From Vicinamibacteria bacterium (lineage in GTDB: Bacteria; Acidobacteriota; Vicinamibacteria; Vicinamibacterales; JAENWD01), in contig CAWDCH010000019.1 in the NCBI GenBank assembly GCA_963800785.1, forward strand, positions 4,790 to 68,789: a stretch of 64,000 nucleotides of DNA, given 5' to 3'. Both the position numbers and the translations under genes were made by a program. Of the stretch, positions 6,359 through 48,992 are shown piece after piece. Numbering within the stretch: position 1 is the stretch's first letter; each line of letters begins with the position of its first letter. A model generated the notes under the pieces. It was not told where the DNA came from. It did no database searches and saw nothing but the letters and a program-made list of their open reading frames with translations.

Positions 6359-6404
6359 TTGGTCGGGGCGACTGGATTCGAACCAGCGACCCCCTGCGCC
6401 CAAG
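6359..6404 (-). repeat. tRNA-Pro(UGG) 3' segment (anticodon loop to CCA), att-type direct repeat copy 1
   Basis: Reverse complement is CTTGGGC GCAGG GGGTC GCTGGTTCGAATCCAGT CGCCCCG A CCA, i.e. anticodon loop (UGG), 3' anticodon stem, variable loop, T-arm and 3' acceptor strand. The upstream sequence (AACAA) cannot pair with GCAGG and no CGGGGCG 5' acceptor strand is present. Identical to 26866..26911. Confidence 0.8.
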
Positions 6405-6511
6405 TTGTTATCGCTGGCTGACAGCGAGCACCACGGACTGCCACCAAGCCTTAATCCACAGGAAAATCGTCATCGGGTGCATTGGCGCCCGGTGTGAGAT
6501 AGGTTGGCTCC

Positions 6512-7342: not shown

Positions 7343-7421
7343 TGACCTCAGCCCCTCTGACCGAAGTCGTTTTATCTGTGACAGGGTACTTGCAACACTG
7401 TCCGTGGAGGCCAATGGCGCC

Positions 7422-7812: not shown

Positions 7813-10251
7813 ATGACTGACGCGATTTCACAGTTTCGCAGCCGACTCAGCGCGCGCGGCATCATTGCCCCGGCCAATCTGCTCGCCGATGGCCGGCTGC
7901 ACCGCTGCGATGCCGAAGGGCAGGGCGGGAGGGGCGACGCAGCATACGTGCTGCACTTGGACGGTGTACCAGCCGGCGGCTTCGAGAACTGGAAAGACGG
8001 ACGCGGCTGGGAGAACTTCCGGGCTGACCTAGATCGGCCGTTGACGGCGGACGAACAGGCGGCGCACCGTGCCAGGCTCGAGACTGCCAAACGCGAGCGG
8101 AAGGCCGAGGATAGGGCAAGGAGAGCCGGCGCGCGCGCACGCGCACTCGAGTTGTGGGAAACGGGCCAACCCTGCACCACTCACCCGTACCTCAGGCGAA
8201 AGGGCGTCGAGGCGTACGGGGCGCGATTATCCGGCGACAGTCTGATGCTGGCTCTCCGGGATACAGCCGGCACGCTTCACTCGCTCCAGTTCATTGACGC
8301 TGACGGCGAGAAGCGTTTCTTGGCGGACGGCCAGAAACGCGGCTGCTATTTTCTTGTTGGGACGCCAGAAAAGGTGTTGTGCGTGGCGGAGGGACTTGCG
8401 ACAGCCGCCAGCATCCACGCGGCGACGCGCTTTGCCGTGGCGGTGGCGCTCGATGCCGGCAATCTGCTTCCGGTTACCGTGACCCTGCGGGCGAAATACC
8501 CAGATCTTCAGATTGTCGTGTGCGCGGACGACGATCGCAATACGGAGGGAAACCCTGGCAAAACCAAGGCGCTGGAGGCCGCAGGCGCTGCCCGTGCTCT
8601 TCTCGCGGTCCCGGATTTCGGTGACGACAGGCCCGACGACGCCACGGACTTCAATGACTTGCACTTGGCGCGCGGGCTGGAGACCGTTAAACAGTGTGTG
8701 AACGCGGCGCTAAGGACGGCAGATGGTGCCGACCCCGCCGACGCTATCGCACGCTGTGACTATGGCGGAGGATATTTCGAGTGTTCCAAGCGCGGGGTCT
8801 TCTTCGTGACGCCCGACAAAGACGGAAATCCGCTCCCTCAATGGATTTGTTCGCCCTTGGCGATTGTGGCGAAGACGCGGGACGCCAACAGCCGCGAATG
8901 GGGACGGCTGCTGCGCTGGACCGATGGGGATTCCAAACCCCACGAATGGGCGATGCCAATGGAAATGCTCCAGGGCGATGGCGCGGAGGTTCGATGTGAA
9001 CTCGCGCGACGCGGGCTAGAAATATCGCCAGCTCGGGCGGCGCGCGAACGATTGACGGCTTTTTTGAACGTCTGGCCCGTCGAGGCACGCGCACGGTGCG
9101 TGGATCGGCTCGGGTGGCACGGTGAGGTATATGTCACTCCGTTGGCCGCCTTCGGAGACGACACCGAAATCATCGTGTTTCAGAACGCACATGCGATCGA
9201 GCCGGCGTTCCACGTGCGCGGCACCCTCGATGAGTGGCGTGCGACGGTTGCGGCACTAGCCGTCGGTAACTCGCGGCTCGTGTTTGCGCTGTCCGTAGGG
9301 TTCGCGGGCGCCCTCCCAGCCCTAGTGAATGACGACTCCGGCGGGTTCCACTTTCGCGGCGCATCCTCGTCAGGAAAGACGACCGCGTTGAAGCTTGCGG
9401 CGTCCGTGTGGGGTGATCCGTCGGAATATCCGCGCCTGTGGCGAGCCACAGCGAACGGGCTTGAAGGGTTGGCGGCGCTGCACAACGATGGCCTTCTGAT
9501 TTTGGACGAACTCAGCCAAATCGATCCGAAGGAGGCCGGCGAGGCGGCGTATCTGCTCGCCAATGGGCAAGGAAAGGCACGCGCATCGCGCACTGGGACG
9601 GCGCGGCAGGCGGCGCGCTGGCGGCTGTTATTCCTGTCAGCGGGCGAAGAATCGCTAATCGCCCTGATGGCCCGGGTTGGGCGGCGCGTGAACGCAGGCC
9701 AAGAGATACGCCTGGCTGACCTCGACGTGGATGCCGGGGCCGGCATGGGTGCATTCGAGACGCTGCACGGAATCGACACACCAGCGGCATTCGCCTTGGC
9801 CGCGACGGATGCTGCTGCGCGCGCACACGGTTCGGCGGGTCCCGCGTGGCTTCGCAGCTTGGTTGCTGACCGGCGAGCGCTGCCGGCGTTGATCACAGAC
9901 GGTGTGCGACAGTTCCTCGCCGAATCGATGCCAGTCGGGGCGGAAGGACAGGCGGTGCGAGTGGGGCGACGGTTCGCGCTGGTCGCGGTGGCAGGCGAAC
10001 TCGCCACGCACTACGGATTGACGGGTTGGCGCGAGGGCGAGGCCAGCGAGGCCGCGCGGCGCTGCTTTGCGGCATGGCTGGAAAGTTTCGGTGGAGGCGG
10101 CAATCGTGACGAGCGGGCGATGCTGGCGCAGGTGAAAGCCTTCTTCGAGGCACACGGTTCCAGCCGGTTCGAGCCGATGGCGTCAACTGGCGAGCCGCGT
10201 ATTGTGAATCGCGCCGGCTTCTTTCGCACGGATGGCGATCATCGGGAGTAA
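7813..10251 (+). CDS. P4-type primase/helicase (Toprim + DUF927-like P-loop NTPase), 3' end frameshifted
   Basis: ATG 7813 follows GGAGGG. Toprim region: VLCVAEGLATAASIHAATRFAVAVALDAGNL...VVCADDD. Walker A: FHFRGASSSGKTT. Walker B-like: LLILDE. The C-terminal continuation is in the +1 frame (next feature). Confidence 0.85.
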   Translation: MTDAISQFRSRLSARGIIAPANLLADGRLHRCDAEGQGGRGDAAYVLHLDGVPAGGFENWKDGRGWENFRADLDRPLTADEQAAHRARLETAKRERKAEDRARRAGARARALELWETGQPCTTHPYLRRKGVEAYGARLSGDSLMLALRDTAGTLHSLQFIDADGEKRFLADGQKRGCYFLVGTPEKVLCVAEGLATAASIHAATRFAVAVALDAGNLLPVTVTLRAKYPDLQIVVCADDDRNTEGNPGKTKALEAAGAARALLAVPDFGDDRPDDATDFNDLHLARGLETVKQCVNAALRTADGADPADAIARCDYGGGYFECSKRGVFFVTPDKDGNPLPQWICSPLAIVAKTRDANSREWGRLLRWTDGDSKPHEWAMPMEMLQGDGAEVRCELARRGLEISPARAARERLTAFLNVWPVEARARCVDRLGWHGEVYVTPLAAFGDDTEIIVFQNAHAIEPAFHVRGTLDEWRATVAALAVGNSRLVFALSVGFAGALPALVNDDSGGFHFRGASSSGKTTALKLAASVWGDPSEYPRLWRATANGLEGLAALHNDGLLILDELSQIDPKEAGEAAYLLANGQGKARASRTGTARQAARWRLLFLSAGEESLIALMARVGRRVNAGQEIRLADLDVDAGAGMGAFETLHGIDTPAAFALAATDAAARAHGSAGPAWLRSLVADRRALPALITDGVRQFLAESMPVGAEGQAVRVGRRFALVAVAGELATHYGLTGWREGEASEAARRCFAAWLESFGGGGNRDERAMLAQVKAFFEAHGSSRFEPMASTGEPRIVNRAGFFRTDGDHRE

Positions 10252-12321: not shown

Positions 12322-14142
12322 ATGCCGGGCAAACGCGAAAGCGATCGCTTGGATGCCGGTCCTCCTCCCGACCCCGGTAACTCTCGGTTCCGGCCTGTTG
12401 TGGGCGGATACCTCGTGTACGCGGAGGGCGGTCCAGAAGAATATTTCGTGCCGGAGGAGGCACTTGACGGCGTTAAAAATTTCATCGACGGCTTCGATGC
12501 TGTCCTGGGGGTGGTCCCCATTGTTGGGAACGCCAAGGATGTCATCGAGTGCATCACGGGCCGCCGCCTGCTCGATGGTCAAGAACTCTCAGCAACCGAA
12601 CGAACGTTGGCCCTCGTCGGCGCCCTTGCCGTCGTAGGCAACATCGTCAATGGCGTTCGCCTCCTGTCGGGGGGCGCGAAGGCGGTGGCCGCATATGAAG
12701 AAGCCGCAACCGACGCGCTGAAAGCGATCGACGAGGCGCGAAAGGCCAGTGACGGTGCGGCCCTACATGAGGCGACGCTGCGCTTTTTCGACGCGACTGA
12801 CGAACTTGCAGACGCGAAGGTGATACGCGCTGAGTACAACCGTCTGAACGAATCGCCCACTGGTCAATTCCTTGCAAACAAAGCCGGACCAATCGACAAG
12901 ATAGCAGACTGGTCGAACCTCGTCGCATTTATCGCAGTGGCCCAGTTTGGCATCAGGCCGGACGCGGAACTGGTGACTCAGGATCAGCCCGAAACCGAAT
13001 CGCCATCGACGTTCAACATGGAAGCTGACGCAAGGTCGAGAACATACGACGCCGAGGCCGACGCGAATGCCGGTACGTTCGACATGCGGCAAGACATCCG
13101 AGACGAAGAGTCTGGCCCAGGATTCGACGCTGACGGTGAGGTGGAGGACGTCGATGGTGATGGTGAACCGGACCGGTCGCTCGAGCCTGCCTCAGCGTTA
13201 AACGCCGCTGACCAGAGCGAATGGGGCGAGGGCTCCGGCGACGACTCAGATGCGCTGCCCGACGCGGCCATCTCTTGCAACGCGCCCGACGAAGGCGCGG
13301 TGGCGCTACCCGACGAAGACCTGTCGAGCGAGGACTCCGGCGACGACTCAGATGCGCTGCCCGACGCGGCCATCTCTTGCGACGCGCCCGACGAAGGCGC
13401 GGTGGCGCTGCCCGACGAAGACCTGTCGAGCGAGGACTCCGGCGACGACTCAGATGCGCTGCCCGACGCGGCCATCTCTTGCGACGCGCCCGACGAAGGC
13501 GCGGTGGCGCTGCCCGACGAAGACCTGTCGAGCGAGGACTCCGGCGACGACTCAGATGCGCTGCCCGACGCGGCCATCTCTTGCGACGCGCCCGACGAAG
13601 GCGCGGTGGCGCTGCCCGACGAAGACCTGTCGAGCGAGGACTCCGGCGACGACTCAGATGCGCTGCCCGACGCGGCCATCTCTTGCGACGCGCCCGACGA
13701 AGGTGCGGATGCGCTGCCCGATGAAGCCCTCTCGAGCGACAACTCCGGCGACGACTCAGATGCGCTGCCCGACGCGGCCCTGTCTTGCGACGCGCCCGAC
13801 GAAGGTGCGGATGCGCTGCCCGATGAAGCCCTCTCGAGCGACAACTCCGGCGACGACTCAGATGCGCTGCCCGATGCGGCCCTGTCTTGCGACGCGCCCG
13901 ACGAAGGTGCGGATGCGCTGCCCGATCCAGCCATCTCGGGCGACAACTCTGGCGACGACTCAGATGCCCTGCCCGACGCGGCCCTGTCTTGTGAGGCGCC
14001 GGACGGAGGCTCGGATATGCTCCCCGACGCAGGCGTGCAGCAGGCAGGGCCGACCGCTGAGGAGCTAGCGGCTGCGCTTGCCGAGGAGACACAACGAGAA
14101 GACGTTGACGTGCCTCAGGAAATCAGAGAGGTAAGCGGATGA
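12322..14142 (+). CDS. pre-toxin-TG (PT-TG) domain protein with long acidic 34-aa tandem repeats and no recognisable toxin domain
   Basis: The N-terminal VVPIVGNAKDVIECITGRRLLDGQELSATERTLALVGALAVVGN matches the PT-TG pattern (iP.vG..k..iE.iTG.d..tGe.Ls..eR). From about residue 305 there are 7.5 units of SGDDSDALPDAAISCDAPDEGAVALPDEDLSSED. Confidence 0.75.
   Translation: MPGKRESDRLDAGPPPDPGNSRFRPVVGGYLVYAEGGPEEYFVPEEALDGVKNFIDGFDAVLGVVPIVGNAKDVIECITGRRLLDGQELSATERTLALVGALAVVGNIVNGVRLLSGGAKAVAAYEEAATDALKAIDEARKASDGAALHEATLRFFDATDELADAKVIRAEYNRLNESPTGQFLANKAGPIDKIADWSNLVAFIAVAQFGIRPDAELVTQDQPETESPSTFNMEADARSRTYDAEADANAGTFDMRQDIRDEESGPGFDADGEVEDVDGDGEPDRSLEPASALNAADQSEWGEGSGDDSDALPDAAISCNAPDEGAVALPDEDLSSEDSGDDSDALPDAAISCDAPDEGAVALPDEDLSSEDSGDDSDALPDAAISCDAPDEGAVALPDEDLSSEDSGDDSDALPDAAISCDAPDEGAVALPDEDLSSEDSGDDSDALPDAAISCDAPDEGADALPDEALSSDNSGDDSDALPDAALSCDAPDEGADALPDEALSSDNSGDDSDALPDAALSCDAPDEGADALPDPAISGDNSGDDSDALPDAALSCEAPDGGSDMLPDAGVQQAGPTAEELAAALAEETQREDVDVPQEIREVSG
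13234..14030 (+). repeat. 102-bp in-frame tandem repeat, 7 full units plus a degenerate 8th
   Basis: Unit starts (TCCGGCGACGACTCAGATGCGCTGCCC...) at 13234, 13336, 13438, 13540, 13642, 13744, 13846 and 13948. Units 1-5 are near-identical. Units 6-8 form a variant subtype (ADALPDEALSSDN). Confidence 0.9.
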
Positions 14143-16625: not shown

Positions 16626-17687
16626 TCACGCCCCAACCGCCACCGGCCACGTGCCAAGCTCCTCCGCGAGCGCCAATAGGTCGCGGTGAATGAGCTTCCA
16701 TGGCTGGTCGAGGTTAAGGCTTCGCACCAGCACCATGTGCCCTCCAAGCTCGTAGTGGAGAGGTTGGCCAGGGCCCAGACCCGCATAGAGAAGAACGCCC
16801 AGTGGCGCAGAGCCTGTGGACCAAGCGTGGTGCGTGAGATAGGTCAATAGCTGATAGAGATGCTCTGAGATCAGCTTCGGAGCGCCTTCGGTCCGTTTTT
16901 GCAGCGCCTCGGCGTAACACTTGGTCTCGACGATGATCGTTTGGCCCGGGCGGGCGAGCGAGATGTCGGTCTGCATGTCTGGCAACCATCGCGGGTCTGA
17001 ACTCGCGGCCCCTGCCACAGCCCAAGGCACCTTCGGCCGTGCGACGCTGAATTGACGTTGTTCACGCATCAGGAAGTTCCTGACGAATGCCTCGAACAAC
17101 GTGCCCATTTGCTGATCGCTGGACGTAAAGCTGCGGAACACTTTGCCTCGGCCCGCCTGTTCCGGCAGCAGGCAACCGGCCACTAATCTGGCAACCTCGA
17201 TCAGGAAGGCGTACCGCACGAGATTCTGGCTAAGCTGGACACCTCGGAATGCTGCGGGGCTGAGCTCAACATCAGACACATCGTCCAGGCGACGGCACAG
17301 GTCCTTGATGTCCAGCCCCAAATCGCGGTCAATACCCGGCAGCCTAGCCAGCTCGCGCATGGCAGACTTGAGGACACGATTGTGTGGAACGTCGTAGCTC
17401 AACTCGTCTGTGCGGCACGCGACGCGCCCTTGCTGCAACAGTAGCCGCTGGGCCGTTTCGACGAGCAGAACCTTGCCTCTCAGCTGTCTCCCTTCCTGCT
17501 CCACCGGTAGATAGCCGCGATCGAGTCCGCGGCGCATCAAATGAGATACACCGGCGTGCAGTACCTTGCCCAGCAGGTTCTCGATCCGATCGCCTGACAG
17601 TGCGCCGACGTCGACGGTATCTAGCGCATCGAGCCTGTCCCACGCGTAGCACAGGAGGTAATAGACGTTCTGAATCGGAACGGCCAT
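16626..17687 (-). CDS. mcrC: McrC-family restriction subunit (PD-(D/E)xK nuclease)
   Basis: 353 aa, with N-terminus MAVPIQNVYYLLCYAWD, then ...LFEAFVRNFL... and the nuclease core DMQTDISL...TIIVETKCY (D...ExK). It lies 3 nt downstream of mcrB. Confidence 0.85.
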   Translation of the reverse strand: MAVPIQNVYYLLCYAWDRLDALDTVDVGALSGDRIENLLGKVLHAGVSHLMRRGLDRGYLPVEQEGRQLRGKVLLVETAQRLLLQQGRVACRTDELSYDVPHNRVLKSAMRELARLPGIDRDLGLDIKDLCRRLDDVSDVELSPAAFRGVQLSQNLVRYAFLIEVARLVAGCLLPEQAGRGKVFRSFTSSDQQMGTLFEAFVRNFLMREQRQFSVARPKVPWAVAGAASSDPRWLPDMQTDISLARPGQTIIVETKCYAEALQKRTEGAPKLISEHLYQLLTYLTHHAWSTGSAPLGVLLYAGLGPGQPLHYELGGHMVLVRSLNLDQPWKLIHRDLLALAEELGTWPVAVGA

Positions 17688-17690
17688 GGC

Positions 17691-19108
17691 TTACGGCTCT
17701 AATAGCCGCTCCTCCTCAGCGTCGGCTTTGGTCCGGTCGTCAAACCAGTACTCGCGCAACAAGGGCGCCAGCTCCGTTCTGACGACGCGTCGGTACCACT
17801 CGTGTTCGCCCAAATCAGCCGGCTTTTGACAGAAGTAACTGTGCCCAATGCAGAACCCGGCGCCGAGGGTCCGGTCTTCGGTGATGGTGGCGTTGAGGCG
17901 GTTCAGTCGTGAGCGTATCCGAGTCGCAAACGCATCCGTAACACCAAGTTGCTTCAGTCGGCTCGGAGAAACCTGGCGACGACAGGCCGGGGGCCAAGTC
18001 GAGGAAGACAAACCTACGTCGAAGCGCGTAGTCCACCATGGCGAGCGACCGATCGGCCGTGTTCATCGTGCCAATGATGTGGAGGTTCTTCGGTACGAAG
18101 AACTTCTCATCGCCCAGTCGAGCGTAGGTCAATTCCGTCTGCCACTTGTCGCTGCGTTTGTCCGCTTCGATCAACAGCAGCAGCTCACCAAAGATCTTGC
18201 TCAGATTGCCTCGGTTGATCTCGTCAATGATGAACACATACTCCTGCGCCGGGTCCTGCAGCGCTTCATCGCAGAATCGCAGGAACGTGCCGTCCATGCG
18301 CTCAAACTGCCCCTTGGCATTGGGGCGGTAGCCTTGGACGAAGTCTTCGTAGGAATACGCCTGATGGAACTGCACGAGGCTGACTCGCGTCGCGTCCTGT
18401 TCGCCCATTAGGAGGTAGGCCAGGTGCTTAGCGAAGAACGTCTTCCCAACGCCTGGTGGCCCTTGCAGGATCAGGTTTTTCTTATAGCGCAATAGGTCGA
18501 TCGCGTCTTCGATTTGCTGCTGAGGAGCGAAGAGGTCTTCCAGTGCGTGGTCAAGGGTGTAGACGGTACGGAGCTTTGGAGGCAACTCCTCAGGTCCCTC
18601 GCCGCCTGTGCCAACGGCCAGCTTGAGGTCGGCCACCAGCTGCGGATACTTCCCGACATCGGTCAGCGTCTTGGTCACCAACGCCTTCTCGCGCGGCACC
18701 CAGCTCCCCCGCTTCTTCCACTCAACCGTTCGTACGTTGGGGTAATCGCCGCGTTCCGGCTCGTGCCGATATTCACCCGTCACGACACCGTACCCGACGA
18801 TCTCGCGTCTGCCTTTCTTGGCATACACGAGGTCGCCGACCTGCATCTCGTGGACGAACTGGTAGCAGGCATAGGCATCCTGGACCGGGCTGACATCCCC
18901 GCCACGGTGAGCCTGCAGAGCCGCTTTGACCGACGCGAGGTCACCATACTGAGAAAGGTCTCCGACCTCTGGCCACCCGATCCCAATCACGCCTTCCTTG
19001 TAGAACTCGTTCGAACATCTGTGCGCGCGGACCGGGCGCCACCAACCAGACTCGCGGACGGTCGCTCTGGGGTTCCTGCTCCTCGCCTTCCTCAGAATCG
19101 CCACCCAT
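17691..19108 (-). pseudogene. mcrB: McrB-family AAA+ GTPase with PUA/EVE-like reader module, frameshifted
   Basis: AAA+ core: LILQGPPGVGKTF, VFIIDEINRGNLSKIFGELL, IGTMNTADRS, ALRRRF. The C-terminus continues in another frame (17691..18011: RLKQLGVTDAFATRIRSRLNRLNATI...FCIGHSYF) after a G5/C5 run at 17989-17993. The N-terminal RVWLVAPG / NEFYKEGVIGIGWPEVGDLS segment is split near 19011-19016. Confidence 0.8.
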
Positions 19109-19130: not shown

Positions 19131-20259
19131 CTATGCAGGCGGTCGCACAAGTGCTCGAGCGTCAGGAACGAGACCCCGAGCGCCTTGGCCAGAGACGCGA
19201 AGACATTGACGAATGCGACATAGCCGTCCCCGCCTCGCAAGTGCCGGCTCGAGCAGGCCATCTTCCTGCAGCGCCTTGCGCGCCGATTGGAAGAAGGTTG
19301 GCCACATTTCCGAGTCCTGGGCATTCCAGCACGCACTGAGGAAGAACGGGGCATTCGCAGATCTCAACGCATTCGACGCCAATCCTCCCGACTCCAGCTG
19401 CTGGTCAAGAAATTGAACCACTTCGTCGATCTTTGTCCGCGCGTCATCCGTGGAGACAGGTGCCCTGACGGCTGCACGCATGATCCGCTCAGCTGCTTCC
19501 TGGTCAGGAACATTCTTGGCGACCTGATTGAGGAACATTGCTCCGGCTGGCCCTTTCAGGCCGAGCACTTCCCACTCAACCCGCGTCTTCGAGTCAAACT
19601 GCTCTTTGAAGTCCGCGAGTGACGTCTGGCCACTGGCGAATGCTCCAACCAAATCCTTCAGTGCCGGGTTCACCTCCATGCGTCGCTTGTCGCGGAGGCG
19701 ATGCCGCTCGAGGTATTCGGAGTCTTCGTCCGCAGCTTGGAGGTATGTCCGCCATCGGTCAACATCGTTGGGCAAAATGGCTGGCGGTGCTTCACCTCTC
19801 TTGGCACCTTCAACGCGTTGGCTCCACAACAGCTCCAGTTCCTGAGCCACTTCGGAAGGAATCCTGACGCCCGACATCTGCGTGTCCCATTTGTAGCCGG
19901 CGAACTGCTTTCCCTCCAGTTCAGCACGCCGGATCAGTGGCAACCGCACAAGGACATCAAACCGGATGGGCACGCGGTTCATCCTGTCGCCAGCGGCCCT
20001 TCGCTCAGGCTGCCAGTGTTCCTGATCCGCGACCTCACCGGTCGTGTAACCAGATCCAACGATTCCCCTTGGGTCAACGCCGAGCCTGATCAAGAACACC
20101 CTACTGCCGACAGGGATGCTTTCTGACGCTGCCGGTGGACCACCAACTCGAGACTCCGCCCTTCTCCGCGACCTCCCCGATCTCCTGGTCAAGTCGATCC
20201 CAGGCGAAGTTCTTCGGATTCCAGGCGAGTAGATATGTGGGTGGCGATTCGTTCGTCAT
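19131..20259 (-). pseudogene. N-terminal extension of the McrB gene: EVE/PUA-like domain plus helical region, frameshifted
   Basis: ATG 20259 gives MTNESPPTYLLAWNPKNFAWDRLDQEI...WWSTGSVR. It switches frame near 20120 to IPVGSRVFLIRLGVDPRGIVGSGYTTGEV (EVE-like). A further shift at a C4 run (19228-19231) leads to GDGYVAFVNVFASLAKALGVSFLTLEHL, which runs without a stop into the McrB segment. Confidence 0.55.
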
Positions 20260-20801: not shown

Positions 20802-22019
20802 ATGATCTACAAGCGAGGCGGCAAGTGGCACATGGACGTGACAATTTGCGGCGTGCGGTACCGCGAGGCATTGCACACGACAGACCGCCGAGAGGCACTG
20901 GCGCTCGAGAAAAAGCGAGTGGCTGAAATCCAGGCCGGAAAGGGAGCGTCGAAGAGCGGACGGGATTTCGCCCGATTGCCCTTCGATGTTGCCGCAGACC
21001 GTTTCACCGAGGAGCGCCGCGTAATGGTGTCCGCTCGCACGCTGCAACTTGACCGGGAACGGCTGAAACCGTTGAAGGCCTTCTTCGGTAGCACACTCCT
21101 TCTTCGAATAAAGGCCGGCGAAATCGCGGCCTATCAGCGCACCCGTCTTGTCGGTTCCATCACGCTACGTCGCTCGGGAACCGCGCGGGGCGTGTCTAAC
21201 CGCACGGTGAACATGGAGACTACCGTGCTCCGGCAGATGCTGCGGCGCGCCAAGGTGTGGTCGGTCGTGGCAGACGATGTCCGACACTTGCCGGAACGTC
21301 GCACGGCAGTCGGTCGCGTTCTGACCGCGGACCAGAAACAACTCTTGTTCCAAATCGCCGGCAGCAGGCCGGCCTGGGATGTCGCCTGCTGCGCCGCCGT
21401 GCTTGCTGTATCGACGACCTGCCGAGGTGTCGAGCTAAAGAATCTGAAGTGGGGCGATGTTGATTGGCTGGACCGCACCGTTAACATCCGACGGTCCAAA
21501 ACTGATGCGGGCAATCGGAAAATTCCCCTGAACGCGGATGCAATCGCTGCCCTTGCTCGGTTGCGTGACCGAGCGGAAGCGAATGCCGCATCGCGGTCTG
21601 AGCACTTCATATTTCCAGCTTGTGAGAATGGACGTCTGAACCCGTACGCGAATCAGAAAACGTGGCGCACTGCTTGGCGTTCACTTGTGAGAGCGGCGGC
21701 AGCGGCAGCGGGTGCGCGAGCTGCGAAAGAAGCGATCGCGGCCGGCCACGATTCCGGCGAGGCGTACCGATCCGCGGCGCTCTCATTCCAAGGACTGCGG
21801 TTCCACGATCTGCGCCATCAGGCGATCACGGAATTGGCTGAAGGCGGCGCGTCGGATGCCACGCTGATGGCTTTAGCGGGCCATCTTAGCCGCGAGATGA
21901 TGGAGCACTATTCGCACGTCCGGATGGCTGCAAAGCGTTCTGCTGTGGAAACGTTAACCGTCGGGTTTTGCGACGTCCAAGCTGACTCGGCCGCCGGCGC
22001 AGCGGATAGTGTTCACTAA
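20802..22019 (+). CDS. tyrosine integrase (phage-integrase family)
   Basis: 405 aa. N-terminal arm-type region MIYKRGGKWHMDVTICGVRYREAL. Catalytic region TTCRGVELKNLKWGDVD..., IRRSKTDAGNRKIPL, FHDLRHQAITELAE, LAGHLSREMMEHYSHV. Confidence 0.9.
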   Translation: MIYKRGGKWHMDVTICGVRYREALHTTDRREALALEKKRVAEIQAGKGASKSGRDFARLPFDVAADRFTEERRVMVSARTLQLDRERLKPLKAFFGSTLLLRIKAGEIAAYQRTRLVGSITLRRSGTARGVSNRTVNMETTVLRQMLRRAKVWSVVADDVRHLPERRTAVGRVLTADQKQLLFQIAGSRPAWDVACCAAVLAVSTTCRGVELKNLKWGDVDWLDRTVNIRRSKTDAGNRKIPLNADAIAALARLRDRAEANAASRSEHFIFPACENGRLNPYANQKTWRTAWRSLVRAAAAAAGARAAKEAIAAGHDSGEAYRSAALSFQGLRFHDLRHQAITELAEGGASDATLMALAGHLSREMMEHYSHVRMAAKRSAVETLTVGFCDVQADSAAGAADSVH

Positions 22020-22107: not shown

Positions 22108-22136
22108 TTGCCATACCAATATTTTTTGTGTATCAT
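22108..22136 (+). promoter_or_regulatory. near-consensus promoter giving a leaderless transcript for 22143
   Basis: TTGCCA (22108-22113), a 17-nt spacer, then TATCAT (22131-22136). The A of ATG 22143 is the 7th nt after the -10 hexamer. Confidence 0.4.
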
Positions 22137-22142
22137 ACCCGT

Positions 22143-22628
22143 ATGAGCGAGCGCGACAGAATCGCAGAGCTTCAGCGCTGGAAGTTGGAGGCGATGGAGG
22201 AAATGAAGGTAGCGCAAGCGGCACTCGCTGCGGCGCAGCAGCGAGTCGAAGCGTCCCGCGAGCGCCTACACCTTCTGGAACGCCTAGTAGCCGTCGAAGT
22301 CGGCCCCGAGGAGGTCAGCGTTGCGCAAGAAACCTTGATGCAAACGGCTCAGGAACGCAGGCCTGGCTCAGATGATCTTCTCGACGCATGCGAGAGAGTG
22401 ATCCGCGATGCCGGTAGGCCGCTTCACATCAGTGAGCTACATGCCGGAATCCTGAAGAGCGGGATTCCAATTCCTGGGCGCGGAACCGAAGCAAACCTGC
22501 TCGTTCGCCTTCATCGTTCTAACGGCCGGTTCGTTCGGACCGGACGCGGCACGTATGCACCGGTGTCCATGGGGGCCCGGGAAATCAGACCAACTCAGCG
22601 CCGGCGAGTACATGGTCGGAGCGCATAG
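22143..22628 (+). CDS. coiled-coil protein with C-terminal HARE-HTH-like winged helix
   Basis: N-terminal heptad-rich helix (IAELQRWKLEAMEEMKVAQAALAAAQQRVEASRERLHLLERL). The C-terminus PLHISELHAGILKSGIPIPGRGTEANLLVRLHRSNGRFVRTGRGTYAP follows the HARE-HTH pattern. Confidence 0.6.
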   Translation: MSERDRIAELQRWKLEAMEEMKVAQAALAAAQQRVEASRERLHLLERLVAVEVGPEEVSVAQETLMQTAQERRPGSDDLLDACERVIRDAGRPLHISELHAGILKSGIPIPGRGTEANLLVRLHRSNGRFVRTGRGTYAPVSMGAREIRPTQRRRVHGRSA

Positions 22629-23225
22629 TGACAAAAAAACCACGAGTCGACAACCCTGACATCATCCCTTTCGCCTTGCATCAGCTCGGCGGTGCGGGAC
22701 AGTTCTTCGACGTTGAGGACATCTTCCTTCGATGTTTTGAAGTCGCCCCGGAACGCTTCCGGTGGCGGAAGCACTTGATAGCCAACTACAAGACCCTTTC
22801 AAAGGCCTTGCGCGATTTCGAAGACCGACACCCGAATCTTCTGCTGAAGACCGAGGACGGGCTGAGCCGTCAGCTCTCGAAGGAAGGGATTGACTGGTTG
22901 AATTCGCGATTGGAGCTCTTCCGAGCAGTTCTCTCGCAGCCCGGCGCCAACCCGCCGACGCGAAGGCGAGAACAGAAGCTCCTCAACGAATTCGCCAACC
23001 ATCGCTTGGTTAGCGCATTTGAGAAAGGAAGCTTGGAAGCACTCCACAAGGTACGAAGTCGCCGATCTCCTTCTGTGCGCTCCGGACAGTCCGACCAGCG
23101 TGTGGAAGGAGCGTCTTGAAACCTACCGATCCGCCGCAAGTGCGGCAGGGCGGCCCAATCTCGTTGAGTTCCTCGACTATCTACGCAGCAACAAACCCGA
23201 CTGGTTCGGAGGAAACAATGGCTAG
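22628..23225 (+). pseudogene. hypothetical protein, middle gene of the GHKL operon, one frameshift
   Basis: GTG 22628 overlaps the upstream TAG. ORF 22628..23119 and ORF 23019..23225 join sensibly near 23050 (...GSLEALHK / RYEVADLLLCAPDSPTSVWKERLETY...). No motif recognised. Confidence 0.5.
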
Positions 23226-25483
23226 GAGCCAGATGAAGAGCGGCAACATCGACTACACGGGCAGGGCCTTCCATCAGGATGCGACCGATGCCATGCGGGG
23301 CGACATCATTCGTGGACTGATTGAGCTGATCACAAACTCGGACGATGCCTACGTCTCGATGGAAGGCCCGAAGCCGGGGAAGATTACCGTCGAGGTCGAA
23401 CACCGGAGAAACCAGCCGTGGCGCGTCATTGTCCGAGACCGAGCAAAGGGAATGACGACTGCCACCATGGAAAATCGTCTCGCTCGGCTCGGTGGGCGCA
23501 CTTCCGGCTTCGAGTCAGGCGAAAACCGGCGTGGGAATCTCGGGCGTGGAGCTAAGGACCTTGCGGCTTTCGGCAAGGTGACCTTCGAGTCGATCTGTGA
23601 CGGTTACTACGCCAAGTTTGTGCTTCACCCAGACGGCCGATGGGATTCGACCGTGAGCGCAAGGCCACCGAGGACGACCGCGAACGGACCGGGATTGCGC
23701 GTGGCTCGGGAACTGTAGTCTTGGTCGAGGCGGCTGCTGGAATCCGGTGCCCTCAGCACGAAAACCTCTACCGTCGCCTTGTCGGTCATTTCCAGGTTCG
23801 TGACATCTTCAGCGATCCCTCCAGACGTGTCGAGCTGATCAACCTAAATGACAAGTCCACCAAGTCGCTGATCTACGCCTACCCTCGCGCACAGGAGATT
23901 TACAACTCTGAAATCGACGTTCCAGGTTATGGCAGAGTGAAGGCGCGGCTCCGGCTTTGGCGGCTCACGGAGAAATGCGAGGACGGCCCTGAGAATACAG
24001 GCCGGCCGACTGGCATCCTCATCAAGGGCAAGCGTGCGATTTACGACAATACCCTCTTCAAGTACCGAGGGCGACATTCACTCCGGGTGGTTCGCTGGCA
24101 GGGTGGAGTGCGACTACATCGACCGGCTCGCGCGGGAGTACGACGACACGCTTGCGTCTGGACAACCCGTGAACCCGAGCAATCCGATCCCGATTATCTC
24201 GAGGCGTCGTGACGGGCTGAATCCGAATCACCCTTTTTTCATGGCCCTGAAGCAAGCCGTCGAGGGGCCTCTGGGAACTCTGGTAGCGGAGGAAGCTGAG
24301 CGAGCTCGCAGCGAAGCACGTAGCGTCGAGAGCGACGACACTCGGCAAGCTCTTGAGCGCCTCGCGCGAGAGCTCGGTCGATTGGTAACCGAGGAGCTCC
24401 GCGAAATTGAGGCGGAGGACTTGCCGGGAGATGACGTCGGGGAGGCGCCGCTGCTCTCGATCGTGCCGGAGCAGGTGTTCGCATACATGGGCGAGGATCT
24501 GTACGCTGACGGTCGTCGCCCGCAAGGTCGGAATCGCCATCGGTGATGAGGTTCACGTCGAAGTGGACCCAGGGGGCGTTGTAGAGCTGCTGACACCGAC
24601 AGCACCGCTGAAAGTACACGGTCGACGCGAGGACGTTCTCGTGGCGCAGGTCCGCATCCGTCCGTTGATCATGGGCGAGGCCGCGATGATCAGCGCCACC
24701 ATCGGTTCCCGCACAGCTCACGCGCTGCTCGAAGTTAGGCCCCCGCGGGTCATTGTCGAGGAACCGGTGATTCCTCCGGAGACCCTTCAGTTTGAACGGC
24801 CCACGTACCGGATCGGGTGGCAGCGCCAGAAAGAGTTGATCCTTCTTGCTCCGGCCGAAGTTGTTGCGACGATGGGTGAGGACTTACACATTAGTTCTAC
24901 AGACCCTGGAGTCATCATTCGCACGCCGCAGGTGAAGCTGAAATACAACGACGACCTCGACTTCTATCGCGTCGGCGTGCTCGTCGAAGGCCGCGTGCTG
25001 GACGCTGCTGGGCAGGTTATTGCTCGCAAGGGTGATACGGTCGCGGCCACCCAGGTCAAGGTGACTCGCAAAGAGGAAGGGCCGGATTTCCGCATTGAGC
25101 TCTCACAGGAAGAGATGGGGACTTTTCGCGCCATCATCGAGCGCGCGGAAGACGTACAGATCGTGAAGGTCGCCGCACGCCATCCGGCGCTTCTACCGTA
25201 CCTGGGCAACGGCTTTGAGGGGCAGAACTCTCCGATCGTTAGGGGTCTCTTGTCTGAGGCGGTCGCAGATGCGGCGGCGCGGCTCGTGGTCTCCAGGCTC
25301 TACTACCAGCGCCGAAGCACCGAGGCTTTCGATGTGGATCGGTACTACCGCGAGCACTACAAGCGGATGCTCAAGTTCCTGCCACGTTTTCAAAAGGTTC
25401 TTGTCGGTGAGCCGTCTTCAGCTCGCGCGGATATAGCCTTGGCTCCAACAGCGCTCGTGACGTCGCTACCTTCTACGGCGTAA
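23219..25483 (+). pseudogene. GHKL (Bergerat-fold, MORC/MutL-like) ATPase of about 750 aa, three frameshifts
   Basis: ATG 23219 follows GGAGGAAACA. GHKL motifs: IRGLIELITNSDDA (N-box), VIVRDRAKGM (G1) and RRGNLGRGAKDLAAFG (G2). The reading frame moves across ORFs 23116..23718, 23640..24212, 24034..24546 and 24407..25483, with sensible joins near 23645, 24065 and 24495. Confidence 0.75.
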
Positions 25484-26865: not shown

Positions 26866-26911
26866 TTGGTCGGGGCGACTGGATTCGAACCAGCGACCCC
26901 CTGCGCCCAAG
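26866..26911 (-). repeat. tRNA-Pro(UGG) 3' segment, att-type direct repeat copy 2
   Basis: Identical 46 nt to 6359..6404. The preceding sequence in tRNA orientation (...GGTTAGAGC) cannot form the anticodon stem and no 5' acceptor strand is found. Confidence 0.8.
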
Positions 26912-48533: not shown

Positions 48534-48992
48534 ATTGGGACAGCAAGGGCCGCAAATAGCTGGCGGCGGTCGATGAGAGAGTCGAACCGATCGGCCATGG
48601 TGTCCTCCTGGCTCGTGAGCCCATGTTGAGGACACCCAGAGCTACTGACCGGGGTCAGCGGGACGCTTCGTTGTCCGCCACCCGACGGACCACATCTCGC
48701 TTGGCGCGATGGCACCTTGCGCGTCCGCGCAGGTTGCCGAGCCCATCGCCTCGTTGGGATGGACTGCTCTGGATGTCGCGGTCAGTGTACCACGCGGTTT
48801 AGGACTGACTGGCCTGCCGCCAGCCCCGTTTCCGCAGGTACGCCTGTTGGTGGTCTTCGTTGTCAAACTCCGTGTACTCCCGCCGGGAGACCGGCAGGCT
48901 CGCTTCTTGAACCCTGTTTACCTATGGGTCACAAAACACATGATTGCGGGACGAAAGCGGCGCAGGCCAAAACGAGCGGATTCCCGAGGAAA

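Follow-up and report, generated by a model that had tools for sequence, protein, structure and literature searches.

The question raised by this locus is whether three overlapping genes lying directly downstream of an integrase gene in a Vicinamibacteria bacterium constitute a defence system that has not yet been named. The genes are found at positions 22143-25483, on the forward strand, of the window, i.e. the whole 64,000-nt stretch under analysis (assembly GCA_963800785.1, contig CAWDCH010000019.1, positions 4,790 to 68,789), to which all coordinates refer unless a related locus is named. A first-pass annotation made from the sequence alone had proposed a candidate novel defence operon composed of a coiled-coil/HARE-HTH protein (gene 1), a protein without recognisable motif (gene 2) and a GHKL ATPase (gene 3). 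The locus is read here, with slightly less than even confidence, as an inactivated copy of a conserved and unnamed cassette, carried as cargo by a 20.5-kb integrative island, whose likeliest role is that of a DNA-targeting conflict system (anti-mobile-element or anti-phage).

A conserved two-gene core with an optional regulator

The three genes form one operon-like chain behind a promoter-like site. Gene 1 (22143..22628, plus strand) is intact and encodes the coiled-coil/HARE-HTH protein of 161 amino acids (aa), according to its open reading frame (ORF) and Pfam; its start was taken as the ATG at 22143, the first start in the ORF tool being the GTG at 22128. Gene 2 (22628..23225, plus strand) carries one frameshift and encodes, once frame-corrected, a winged-helix protein of 198 aa, according to tblastn and the model of a homologue. 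Gene 3 (23219..25483, plus strand) carries three frameshifts and yields a frame-corrected GHKL ATPase of 754 aa, assigned by Pfam and the model of a homologue. The coupling of the genes through overlapping stop and start codons, noted at first pass, was verified at the level of coordinates: gene 1 stops with a TAG (22626-22628) that shares a base with the GTG start of gene 2 (22628-22630), and gene 3 starts with an ATG (23219) that overlaps the end of gene 2 (TAG, 23223-25). The same overlaps of 4-8 nt recur in intact homologous loci, e.g. at 7412/7415 and 8001/8008 in the related locus L001.

The three genes are conserved well beyond the window. At least 366 homologues of gene 3 were retrieved at 90% clustering, full length and with 44-83% identity; for gene 2 the number is 75 (up to 90% identical, 100% coverage) and for gene 1 it is 44. 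Nearly all homologues of the cassette are metagenomic entries labelled "hypothetical protein". Matches to all three genes recur on contigs of equal size (e.g. 29520, 16479 and 31175 nt), which suggests shared contigs, and the presence of the three genes on the 29,520-nt contig (L068) was confirmed directly. Linkage was measured in a sample of 65 non-redundant loci whose ORFs were searched with hidden Markov models of the families. Of the 63 loci with enough upstream sequence, 55 have gene 2 immediately before gene 3; the remaining eight comprise three loci with a DndB-family protein instead, one archaeal locus and four distant solo GHKL proteins of 630 aa. Gene 1 joins genes 2 and 3 in 29 of 57 loci, and the 20 loci with genes 2 and 3 only belong mostly to Dehalococcoidia and Actinomycetota, with gene 3 at 27-32% identity. 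Since gene 2 is near-constant and gene 1 is present in about half of the loci, the obligatory unit is genes 2 and 3, to which gene 1 is an optional accessory. The trio proposed at first pass therefore does co-occur outside the window, as a conserved unit in related loci, but its constant part is limited to two genes.

The hosts belong to Chloroflexota, Actinomycetota, Acidobacteriota, Proteobacteria, Patescibacteria and several candidate phyla, and include one archaeon. A pattern-based scan, which gives a lower bound, detected the cassette in at least 57 of 185,579 species representatives. Nearly all carriers are uncultured lineages of soil, sediment and groundwater, and the family is for this reason missed by the catalogues. 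One cultured carrier was found, Mycobacterium sp. E183 (NZ_LZJN01000077.1, locus L013), in which an Mrr_N winged-helix protein stands in the position of gene 1; the first position of the cassette is a variable winged-helix slot. The family was found in none of 72,556 plasmids or 50,697 phage genomes and gave a single match in 2.9 million viral contigs. The cassette is a conserved and self-contained unit that moves laterally and consists of two core genes plus an optional regulator.

Architecture of the proteins and state of the window copy

Gene 3 matches HATPase_c_3 (PF13589) over residues 34-113, with 25.1 bits for a cut-off of 25, and carries the Bergerat motifs ELITNSDDA, DRAKGM and GNLGRGAKD. 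These motifs had been recognised at first pass, and their key residues proved invariant in 97 homologues: E36, N40 and D43 in motif I, D74 and G78 in motif II, and G106, G109 and G111 in motif III (numbering of the homologue P0003). In motif IV (GT), G164 alone of the pair is invariant. Intact members of the family should therefore be able to bind ATP, judging from these conserved residues. An AlphaFold model of P0003, which is 78% identical to gene 3, was obtained with a pLDDT of 87. It displays a Bergerat fold (residues 1-200), a transducer-like alpha/beta domain (200-310), a long helical hairpin (338-398), three beta-sandwich domains (412-651) and a helical bundle (658-750). Transferred to the plus strand of the window, these parts correspond approximately to 23219-23830 (GHKL domain), 23830-24150 (transducer), 24230-24420 (hairpin), 24450-25180 (beta-sandwich domains) and 25190-25483 (bundle). 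Motifs I-III of the GHKL superfamily are thus present, and so is the Bergerat fold followed by a transducer/S5-like domain that characterises its Topo II/MutL/MORC/Hsp90 subclass.

A Foldseek search of the gene 3 model against the PDB ranks the B subunit of topoisomerase VI (Topo VI-B) first (9o0g_B, E=2.6e-11, 663 aligned columns), followed by 43K fragments of ParE/GyrB, MORC2/3 and Hsp90, with E-values of 1e-11 to 1e-9 over 350-660 columns; whole-chain TM-scores are only 0.32-0.39. At the sequence level, the family profile retrieved no solved relative from the PDB, all matches being noise (E>=0.3). No nuclease, helicase, Toprim, TIR or methylase domain was detectable in gene 3 by Pfam or in the model. 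The possibility of a nuclease or HEPN domain hidden in gene 3 was considered on account of a RYYREH segment resembling Rx4-6H and was rejected, as its Arg is not conserved and no Pfam nuclease is matched; the conserved polar motif is YxEH. The C-terminal part, about 350 aa, was compared as a profile with 1.84 billion representative proteins and retrieved 597 representative clusters. The module always occupies approximately residues 405-750 of proteins of 730-780 aa, which indicates a fixed, family-specific architecture, and its occurrence in other architectures was rejected, as it was found in the gene 3 family alone. The first-pass description of about 550 uncharacterised residues after the ATPase domain has to be revised: that region opens with a transducer and a helical stalk of the kind seen in Topo VI-B, GyrB and MORC, and goes on into the beta-sandwich domains and the bundle. 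The N-terminal 400 residues, with GHKL domain, transducer and helical stalk, correspond to the dimerising clamp module of Topo VI-B, GyrB/ParE, MORC, MutL and Hsp90, and gene 3 is, on the model, a member of the ATP-gated clamp class of GHKL enzymes.

Gene 2, after frame correction, gave no profile match in Pfam, PADLOC-DB v2, NCBIfam or PHROGs, in keeping with the absence of motif reported at first pass, but a fold can be recognised in its model. The AlphaFold model of P0122 (87% identical to gene 2, pLDDT 91) displays a winged helix at residues 9-83 followed by a helical domain, and the weak matches returned by Foldseek are all winged-helix proteins: PadR-like, STIV F93, the winged helix of MUS81, AspA and ScpB. 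Gene 2 is accordingly modelled as a small winged-helix protein with a helical C-terminal domain.

Gene 1 is made of an N-terminal helical or coiled-coil part (approximately aa 5-60), a variable linker, a HARE-HTH domain (aa 79-141) and a basic tail. The HARE-HTH match (PF05066, aa 79-141) has E=7e-6 and 26.7 bits, above the cut-off of 25.9, and PF05066 is a precomputed annotation of many gene 1 homologues. The N-terminal 60 residues are helical and conserved; the only matches to the coiled coil are weak ones, to coiled-coil parts of JetC, LmuB and FliH. The domain content given at first pass is thus upheld, more firmly for the winged helix than for the coiled coil.

The upstream region of gene 1 is informative with respect to its function. 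In related loci it contains the palindrome GTAnnTAC (e.g. GTATATAC, GTAGCTAC and GTAGGTAC), often doubled, with copies 9-12 nt apart that overlap or flank the -35 and -10 hexamers. In 4.76 kb of sequence upstream of gene 1 (28 loci), 37 sites were counted, at least one of them in 19 loci, as compared with 2.0 +/- 1.4 sites (maximum 10) in 1000 dinucleotide-preserving shuffles, i.e. an enrichment of approximately 19-fold; the background across all loci is 0.14 per kb. No site was found upstream of gene 2 in the 23 loci without gene 1. Occurrences at about +410-446 nt inside gene 1 were rejected as operators and left uncounted, since they result from the coding of a conserved GTY motif (GGT-ACN-TAC). 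As the palindrome tracks the presence of gene 1, the gene 1 protein is read as a dimer that binds this motif and controls its own operon, which would make it a regulator and not a sensor or an effector. Gene 1 would then be the autoregulator of the operon, and probably a repressor acting through paired GTAnnTAC sites at its own promoter.

The promoter-like site of the window, TTGCCA-17-TATCAT (22108..22136, plus strand), matches the consensus at 10 of 12 positions. The near-consensus promoter reported at first pass does exist, but two sites of this quality are found in 5.4 kb for 1.3 expected by chance, and the match by itself is weak evidence. The span of 22108-25483 initially given to the operon likewise begins at this site, the operon being real and gene 1 itself starting at 22143. 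The ATG of gene 1 lies 6 nt past the -10 hexamer, which suggests a leaderless mRNA; the cassette transcript is probably leaderless, judging from this spacing. In homologous loci the start codon is found 5-9 nt after a -10-like hexamer, several of them having the same layout. No strict GTAnnTAC is present upstream of gene 1 in the window. The sequence GTAT-C-ATAC at 22130..22138 (plus strand), which was read directly and overlaps the -10, may be a remnant of the family operator expanded by one central base.

A conserved operator, together with a GHKL protein paired with one or two winged-helix proteins, recalls the pairs of CapK (a GHKL kinase) and CapS (a STAS-wHTH repressor), which regulate adjacent immune operons (PMC13373217). 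By analogy, gene 3 could act as a GHKL kinase, phosphorylating the winged-helix protein or proteins so as to switch the transcription of genes nearby; the cassette would then be a regulatory pair of the CapK/CapS or anti-sigma type and not an effector system. This is regarded as very improbable: the fold matches are to the class of ATPases with a transducer and not to histidine or anti-sigma kinases, STAS, HisKA and DHp domains are all missing, no conserved downstream operon is available for regulation, and the 350-aa C-terminal module has no CapK counterpart.

Frameshifts were located by tblastn with intact homologues and by three-frame translation. The first-pass statement that genes 2 and 3 are frameshifted was borne out, with one shift in the former and three in the latter, all on the plus strand: a +1 shift (extra G) at ~23050/51 in gene 2, and a -1 shift at 23647/48, a +1 shift (extra C) at 24066 and a +1 shift (extra T) within 24499-24502 in gene 3. 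The frame-corrected genes align end to end with intact proteins. With four frameshifts the window copy is unable to produce the gene 2 or gene 3 protein, and the cassette is inactive as sequenced. The correct frames of both genes are free of in-frame stops, so that consensus error may be the source of the shifts; two of the four indels fall in two-base runs. Exact-protein look-ups retrieved no second assembly against which the shifts could be compared. On the other hand, ORFs as long as 837-991 aa in other parts of the window are intact. Set beside the disruption of genes 2 and 3 and of an McrB-like gene of the same island, this suggests a local decay of the defence-like genes of the island rather than uniformly poor sequence. 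Gene 3 is also fragmented, into 2-4 ORF pieces, in 7 of the 65 other loci (L022, L024, L025, L026/L027, L036, L038 and L054); some of these originate from error-prone long-read metagenome-assembled genomes (MFD and OZ records), L026/L027 being SPAdes contigs.

Genomic context and likely role

A perfect 46-nt direct repeat bounds the 20.5-kb segment in which the cassette is located. The left copy (6359..6404, minus strand) is a putative att site resembling a tRNA 3' end, and the right copy (26866..26911, minus strand), a perfect one, marks the other end of the island. The reverse complement of the repeat reads as a tRNA T-arm, acceptor stem and CCA. ARAGORN calls a tRNA-Leu(cag) at 6360-6448, but Rfam detects no tRNA at either copy, even at E<=1, which makes this call doubtful; both tRNA-like fragments have the same orientation and no intact tRNA lies to their right. 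A tyrosine integrase of 405 aa (20802..22019, plus strand; Phage_integrase, E=8e-22) is intact and directly upstream of the cassette.

The island also holds a DUF927/Toprim primase, a PT-TG protein, McrC (16626-17687, from the domain scan) and an McrB-like AAA_5 GTPase (17815-19104, minus strand). The McrB-like gene is frameshifted in the region of ~17900-17990: its conserved C-terminal segment (IGHSYF...EERLLEP) is read on in a different frame, which terminates immediately ahead of the McrC start (MAVPIQNVYY), so that the type IV restriction system next to the cassette is broken as well. The island had been described as packed with defence genes, a picture that has to be reduced to McrC and the frameshifted McrB near the cassette, no other defence genes being recognisable nearby.

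In related loci, the cassette adjoins integrases, Fic, DUF2357/PDDEXK_7 and EVE proteins (L001) or lies in a relaxase/ParA region with RES (L003, L004). It is found beside AbiE and integrases in L006, type IV secretion system (T4SS) genes and a KAP NTPase in L007, an integrase in L044 and a SoFic-like Fic gene in L069. In L068 it is placed between Y2 transposases, with a SLFN_AlbA_2 gene 13 nt downstream, and in L066 the trio stands alone between the threonyl-tRNA synthetase gene and housekeeping genes. These surroundings bear on an alternative in which the cassette would serve the mobile element itself, as a MORC-like silencing, partition or exclusion module with no anti-phage role. It is favoured by the integrase adjoining the cassette in the att-bounded island of the window, by the integrases beside L001, L006 and L044, the relaxase and T4SS genes of L003 and L007 and the transposases flanking L068, and by the lack of an effector nuclease. 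It is disfavoured by the absence of the family from the plasmids and phages searched, with only one viral contig matched, and by the many loci without mobile-element genes within 6 kb. This alternative is judged unlikely, and it overlaps the conflict reading in that the exclusion of competing elements is a form of defence.

Other neighbours and partner substitutions point towards modification and restriction. An N6_N4 DNA methylase stands tail to tail with gene 3 in L009, L030 and L044 and about 4 kb away in a fourth locus; the PADLOC "mad2" matches among the neighbours are probably such adjacent methylases, mad2 being the methyltransferase of MADS. DUF4365, HNH_2, RecQ and UvrD were each found once next to the cassette (HNH_2 in 1 of ~60 loci), and DUF4365, SLFN_AlbA_2 and HNH_2 can be considered occasional fourth genes. 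In three loci from Acidimicrobiia and OM1 genomes (L018, L019, L020) gene 2 is replaced by a DndB-family protein (DGQHR; PF14072, E=7e-97), gene 3 being at 38-40% identity; no other dnd genes were recognised nearby. DndB is a DNA-binding protein of the ParB superfamily with reported NTPase and nuclease activities (PMC10853773), and its substitution for gene 2 supports a DNA-directed role of the gene 3 partner. A clade of Actinomycetota has a conserved gene of 575-620 aa that overlaps or abuts the gene 3 stop (L033, L041, L043, L045, L049 and L056, at ~8150-10000). Its sole signal is a weak Sigma70_r4-like HTH, and it may represent a clade-specific fourth component or effector.

Mobility, patchy phylogeny, restriction-type partner swaps, occasional methylase or nuclease neighbours and frequent disruption are together best accommodated by a conflict role. 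The defence function suggested at first pass thus stays plausible on genomic grounds, with mobile cargo, sporadic distribution, DndB and Mrr_N swaps and adjacent methylases in its favour, tempered by neighbours that are heterogeneous and defence-like in a minority of cases.

The helicase neighbours raise another possibility, namely that genes 2 and 3 form a cellular DNA-repair or recombination accessory, a MutL-like helicase matchmaker that is occasionally mobilised. The architecture of GHKL domain and transducer is shared with MutL, RecQ follows immediately after the pair in L031, UvrD has a convergent orientation in L040 and is nearby in L001, and the pair is found among housekeeping genes in Dehalococcoidia and Actinomycetota. 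The helicase neighbours nevertheless amount to 3 of ~60 loci, the carriers are scattered across phyla at the low frequency reported above, no MutL_C is present and no solved MutL is matched by sequence, and the DndB and Mrr_N swaps and adjacent methylases call for modification and restriction themes instead. A repair function is therefore considered quite improbable.

Several observations weigh against the conflict reading. Among 150 neighbouring ORFs analysed with Pfam and PADLOC, 162 Pfam families were recorded, a minority of the ORFs had PADLOC matches and no recurrent partner family emerged. Across the 65 loci, no conserved nuclease, helicase, methylase or other effector was found in the operon. 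Approximately 20 loci with genes 2 and 3 only lie amid housekeeping genes, and two from Dehalococcoidia (L034, L050) show signs of synteny; such pairs fit a stable cellular function as well as defence. The best Foldseek match of gene 2 is a weak one (E=0.067), the operator is assigned to gene 1 from co-occurrence alone, and dimerisation, the interaction of the gene 2 and gene 3 proteins and DNA binding are all inferred. Finally, novelty was judged against PADLOC-DB v2.0.0, which is the 2023 release.

If the conflict reading is nonetheless followed, the cassette might operate as follows. The gene 3 protein would dimerise through its ATP gate and probably also through the C-terminal bundle, as the model suggests, and gene 2 would tether this dimer to DNA. 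Binding of ATP would shut the N-terminal gate, and the closed complex would clamp or compact the target DNA in the manner of MORC. This would block the target's replication or expression, or else the DNA would be passed to a nuclease acting in trans or encoded by an occasional fourth gene, the complex of genes 2 and 3 presumably acting on DNA with no nuclease of its own. A more specific version, which is speculative and on the whole unlikely, makes genes 2 and 3 a nuclease-free bacterial counterpart of the MORC silencing of eukaryotes, in which an ATP-gated GHKL clamp loaded by a winged-helix adaptor entraps or compacts foreign DNA instead of cleaving it and is restrained by the HARE-HTH repressor. 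If true, prokaryotic immunity or xenogeneic silencing would gain a class with a new mechanism.

ATPases combining a GHKL domain and a transducer drive topoisomerases, mismatch repair, Hsp90 and MORC chromatin silencing. To our knowledge, very few bacterial relatives have been tested so far. Their participation in restriction-like systems was predicted in 2008 (PMC2292703). What sets the present family apart is that its architecture does not vary, that a winged-helix partner is obligatory, that it has a regulator of its own with a recognisable operator, and that it lacks a nuclease. Were it protective, it would provide an ATP-gated clamp as immune effector and a bacterial model for MORC-type silencing, for which Mycobacterium sp. 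E183 offers an experimental entry point. In the genome under study, the cassette forms part of a 20.5-kb island in decay, with disruptions in McrB as well as in genes 2 and 3.

A number of further features were recorded in the neighbourhoods and in the window. L003 (10363-14087) and L004 (7865-11589) contain, convergent with the cassette, a pair of genes for a 765-aa HATPase_c_3 protein and a 476-aa Metallophos phosphoesterase, which may represent a further GHKL-based module, distinct from the cassette, on the same island. ComEC adjoins the cassette in L005 (5264-7150) and in L065 (4394-6282, where ComEA is also present) on unrelated contigs, either as a shared insertion hotspot or by coincidence. 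In the island of the window, a 52-aa ORF (20101-20259; ...LAWNPKNFAWD...WWSTG) and a 353-aa ORF (19131-20192; ...VGSRVFLIRLG...GIVGSG...) look like a single frameshift-split gene at 19131-20259 (minus strand); the 353-aa ORF has no Pfam match. Overlapping copies of a 300-nt repeat, mostly 51 nt apart, cover 13124-14137 and indicate tandem repetition every ~51 nt within the PT-TG (pre-toxin) ORF of 606 aa at 12322-14142. A SAM-I/IV riboswitch is found at 48657-48781 (minus strand), above the Rfam gathering threshold (48.2 bits).

Comparison with known systems

Profile searches with the three frame-corrected proteins did not associate them with any catalogued system. Genes 2 and 3 matched no family of PADLOC-DB v2.0.0 at E<=1 and gene 1 gave coiled-coil noise only (JetC, LmuB); nothing usable was returned by NCBIfam or PHROGs, and Pfam gave generic, threshold-level domains only. 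No description of the cassette was found in the literature. The earlier judgement that the trio cannot be equated with a named system is therefore maintained.

Gene 1 resembles the regulators CapK/CapS, CapW, BrxR and the C proteins in being a small, presumably dimeric winged-helix protein encoded first in the operon, associated with promoter palindromes and partly dispensable. It differs from them in combining a HARE-HTH with a coiled coil instead of a STAS-wHTH, WYL or Xre domain, and its DNA binding is a prediction. HARE-HTH modules of restriction enzymes, with which gene 1 shares its winged-helix family, have been proposed to be readers of modified DNA (Aravind and Iyer 2012, as cited in PMC10853773). 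Unlike these modules, gene 1 stands alone with a coiled coil and tracks a promoter-proximal palindrome, so that a sequence-specific regulator fits better than a reader of modification.

Several GHKL systems were compared with gene 3 and set aside. Topo VI-B, the best structural match, resembles gene 3 in its GHKL domain, transducer and long helical stalk; a type IIB topoisomerase (Topo VI/VIII) was rejected because neither Toprim nor Top6A (5Y-CAP, Spo11-like) is found in gene 3 or in conserved neighbours. MutL was rejected for want of a MutL_C match and of a PDB sequence homologue at E<=0.3, and histidine or anti-sigma kinases, CapK included, because HisKA, DHp and STAS domains are missing and a transducer is present. 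MADS was rejected on domain content. VcSduA is a GHKL-Shedu fusion of proven anti-phage activity, a single protein with a C-terminal DUF4263 PD-(D/E)xK nuclease (Adams et al. 2025, PMC12137116). Gene 3 is similar to it as a GHKL ATPase with a clamp-like middle domain; the assignment was rejected since gene 3 lacks a nuclease domain and depends on gene 2. The HEF_HK/Response_reg_2 gene pairs, which are related to paraMORCs (Bellieny-Rabelo et al. 2021, PMC8011034), likewise link a small protein tightly to a HATPase_c_3 protein and have frequent restriction-modification neighbours. The small partner of the cassette is a winged helix and not a receiver-like protein, and these pairs were rejected as PF19191 and PF19192 are unmatched at E<=1.

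The prokaryotic MORC and paraMORC1-5 proteins are GHKL ATPases of operons resembling restriction-modification systems (Iyer, Abhiman and Aravind 2008, PMC2292703). The partners of the paraMORCs in these operons are SF2 helicases, RE-fold, Vsr or HNH endonucleases and DNA methylases, and their extensions include an ExxxH motif in S5 (pM2), an RE-fold nuclease (pM3), a TIR domain (pM4) and an HxH domain (pM5) (PMC2292703). Membership of MORC in the strict sense was rejected, as the S5 motif GhXhhpXXRhl (PMC2292703) is not evident in gene 3: the segment RPxGILIKGxRAIY, compared by eye in the alignment, places K at h5 and A at the R position. Assignment to paraMORC1-5 was rejected as well, since genes 2 and 1 are the sole conserved partners, no RE-fold or TIR domain is matched and the motif is YxEH, not HxH. 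The cassette also differs from paraMORC operons in that it has no conserved SF2 helicase, Vsr or RE-fold endonuclease, its partners being small winged-helix proteins, and from paraMORC3-5, which were compared by description only, in that the C-terminal module of gene 3 consists of beta-sandwiches and a helical bundle. In other respects the correspondence is close: a GHKL domain with intact ATP motifs is followed by an S5/transducer-type domain and gives a threshold HATPase_c_3 match, the cassette is sporadic, laterally mobile and occasionally linked to methylases, and both are predicted to be ATP-driven manipulators of DNA in conflict systems. The MORC/paraMORC GHKL proteins of restriction-like operons are accordingly the closest kind described to date.

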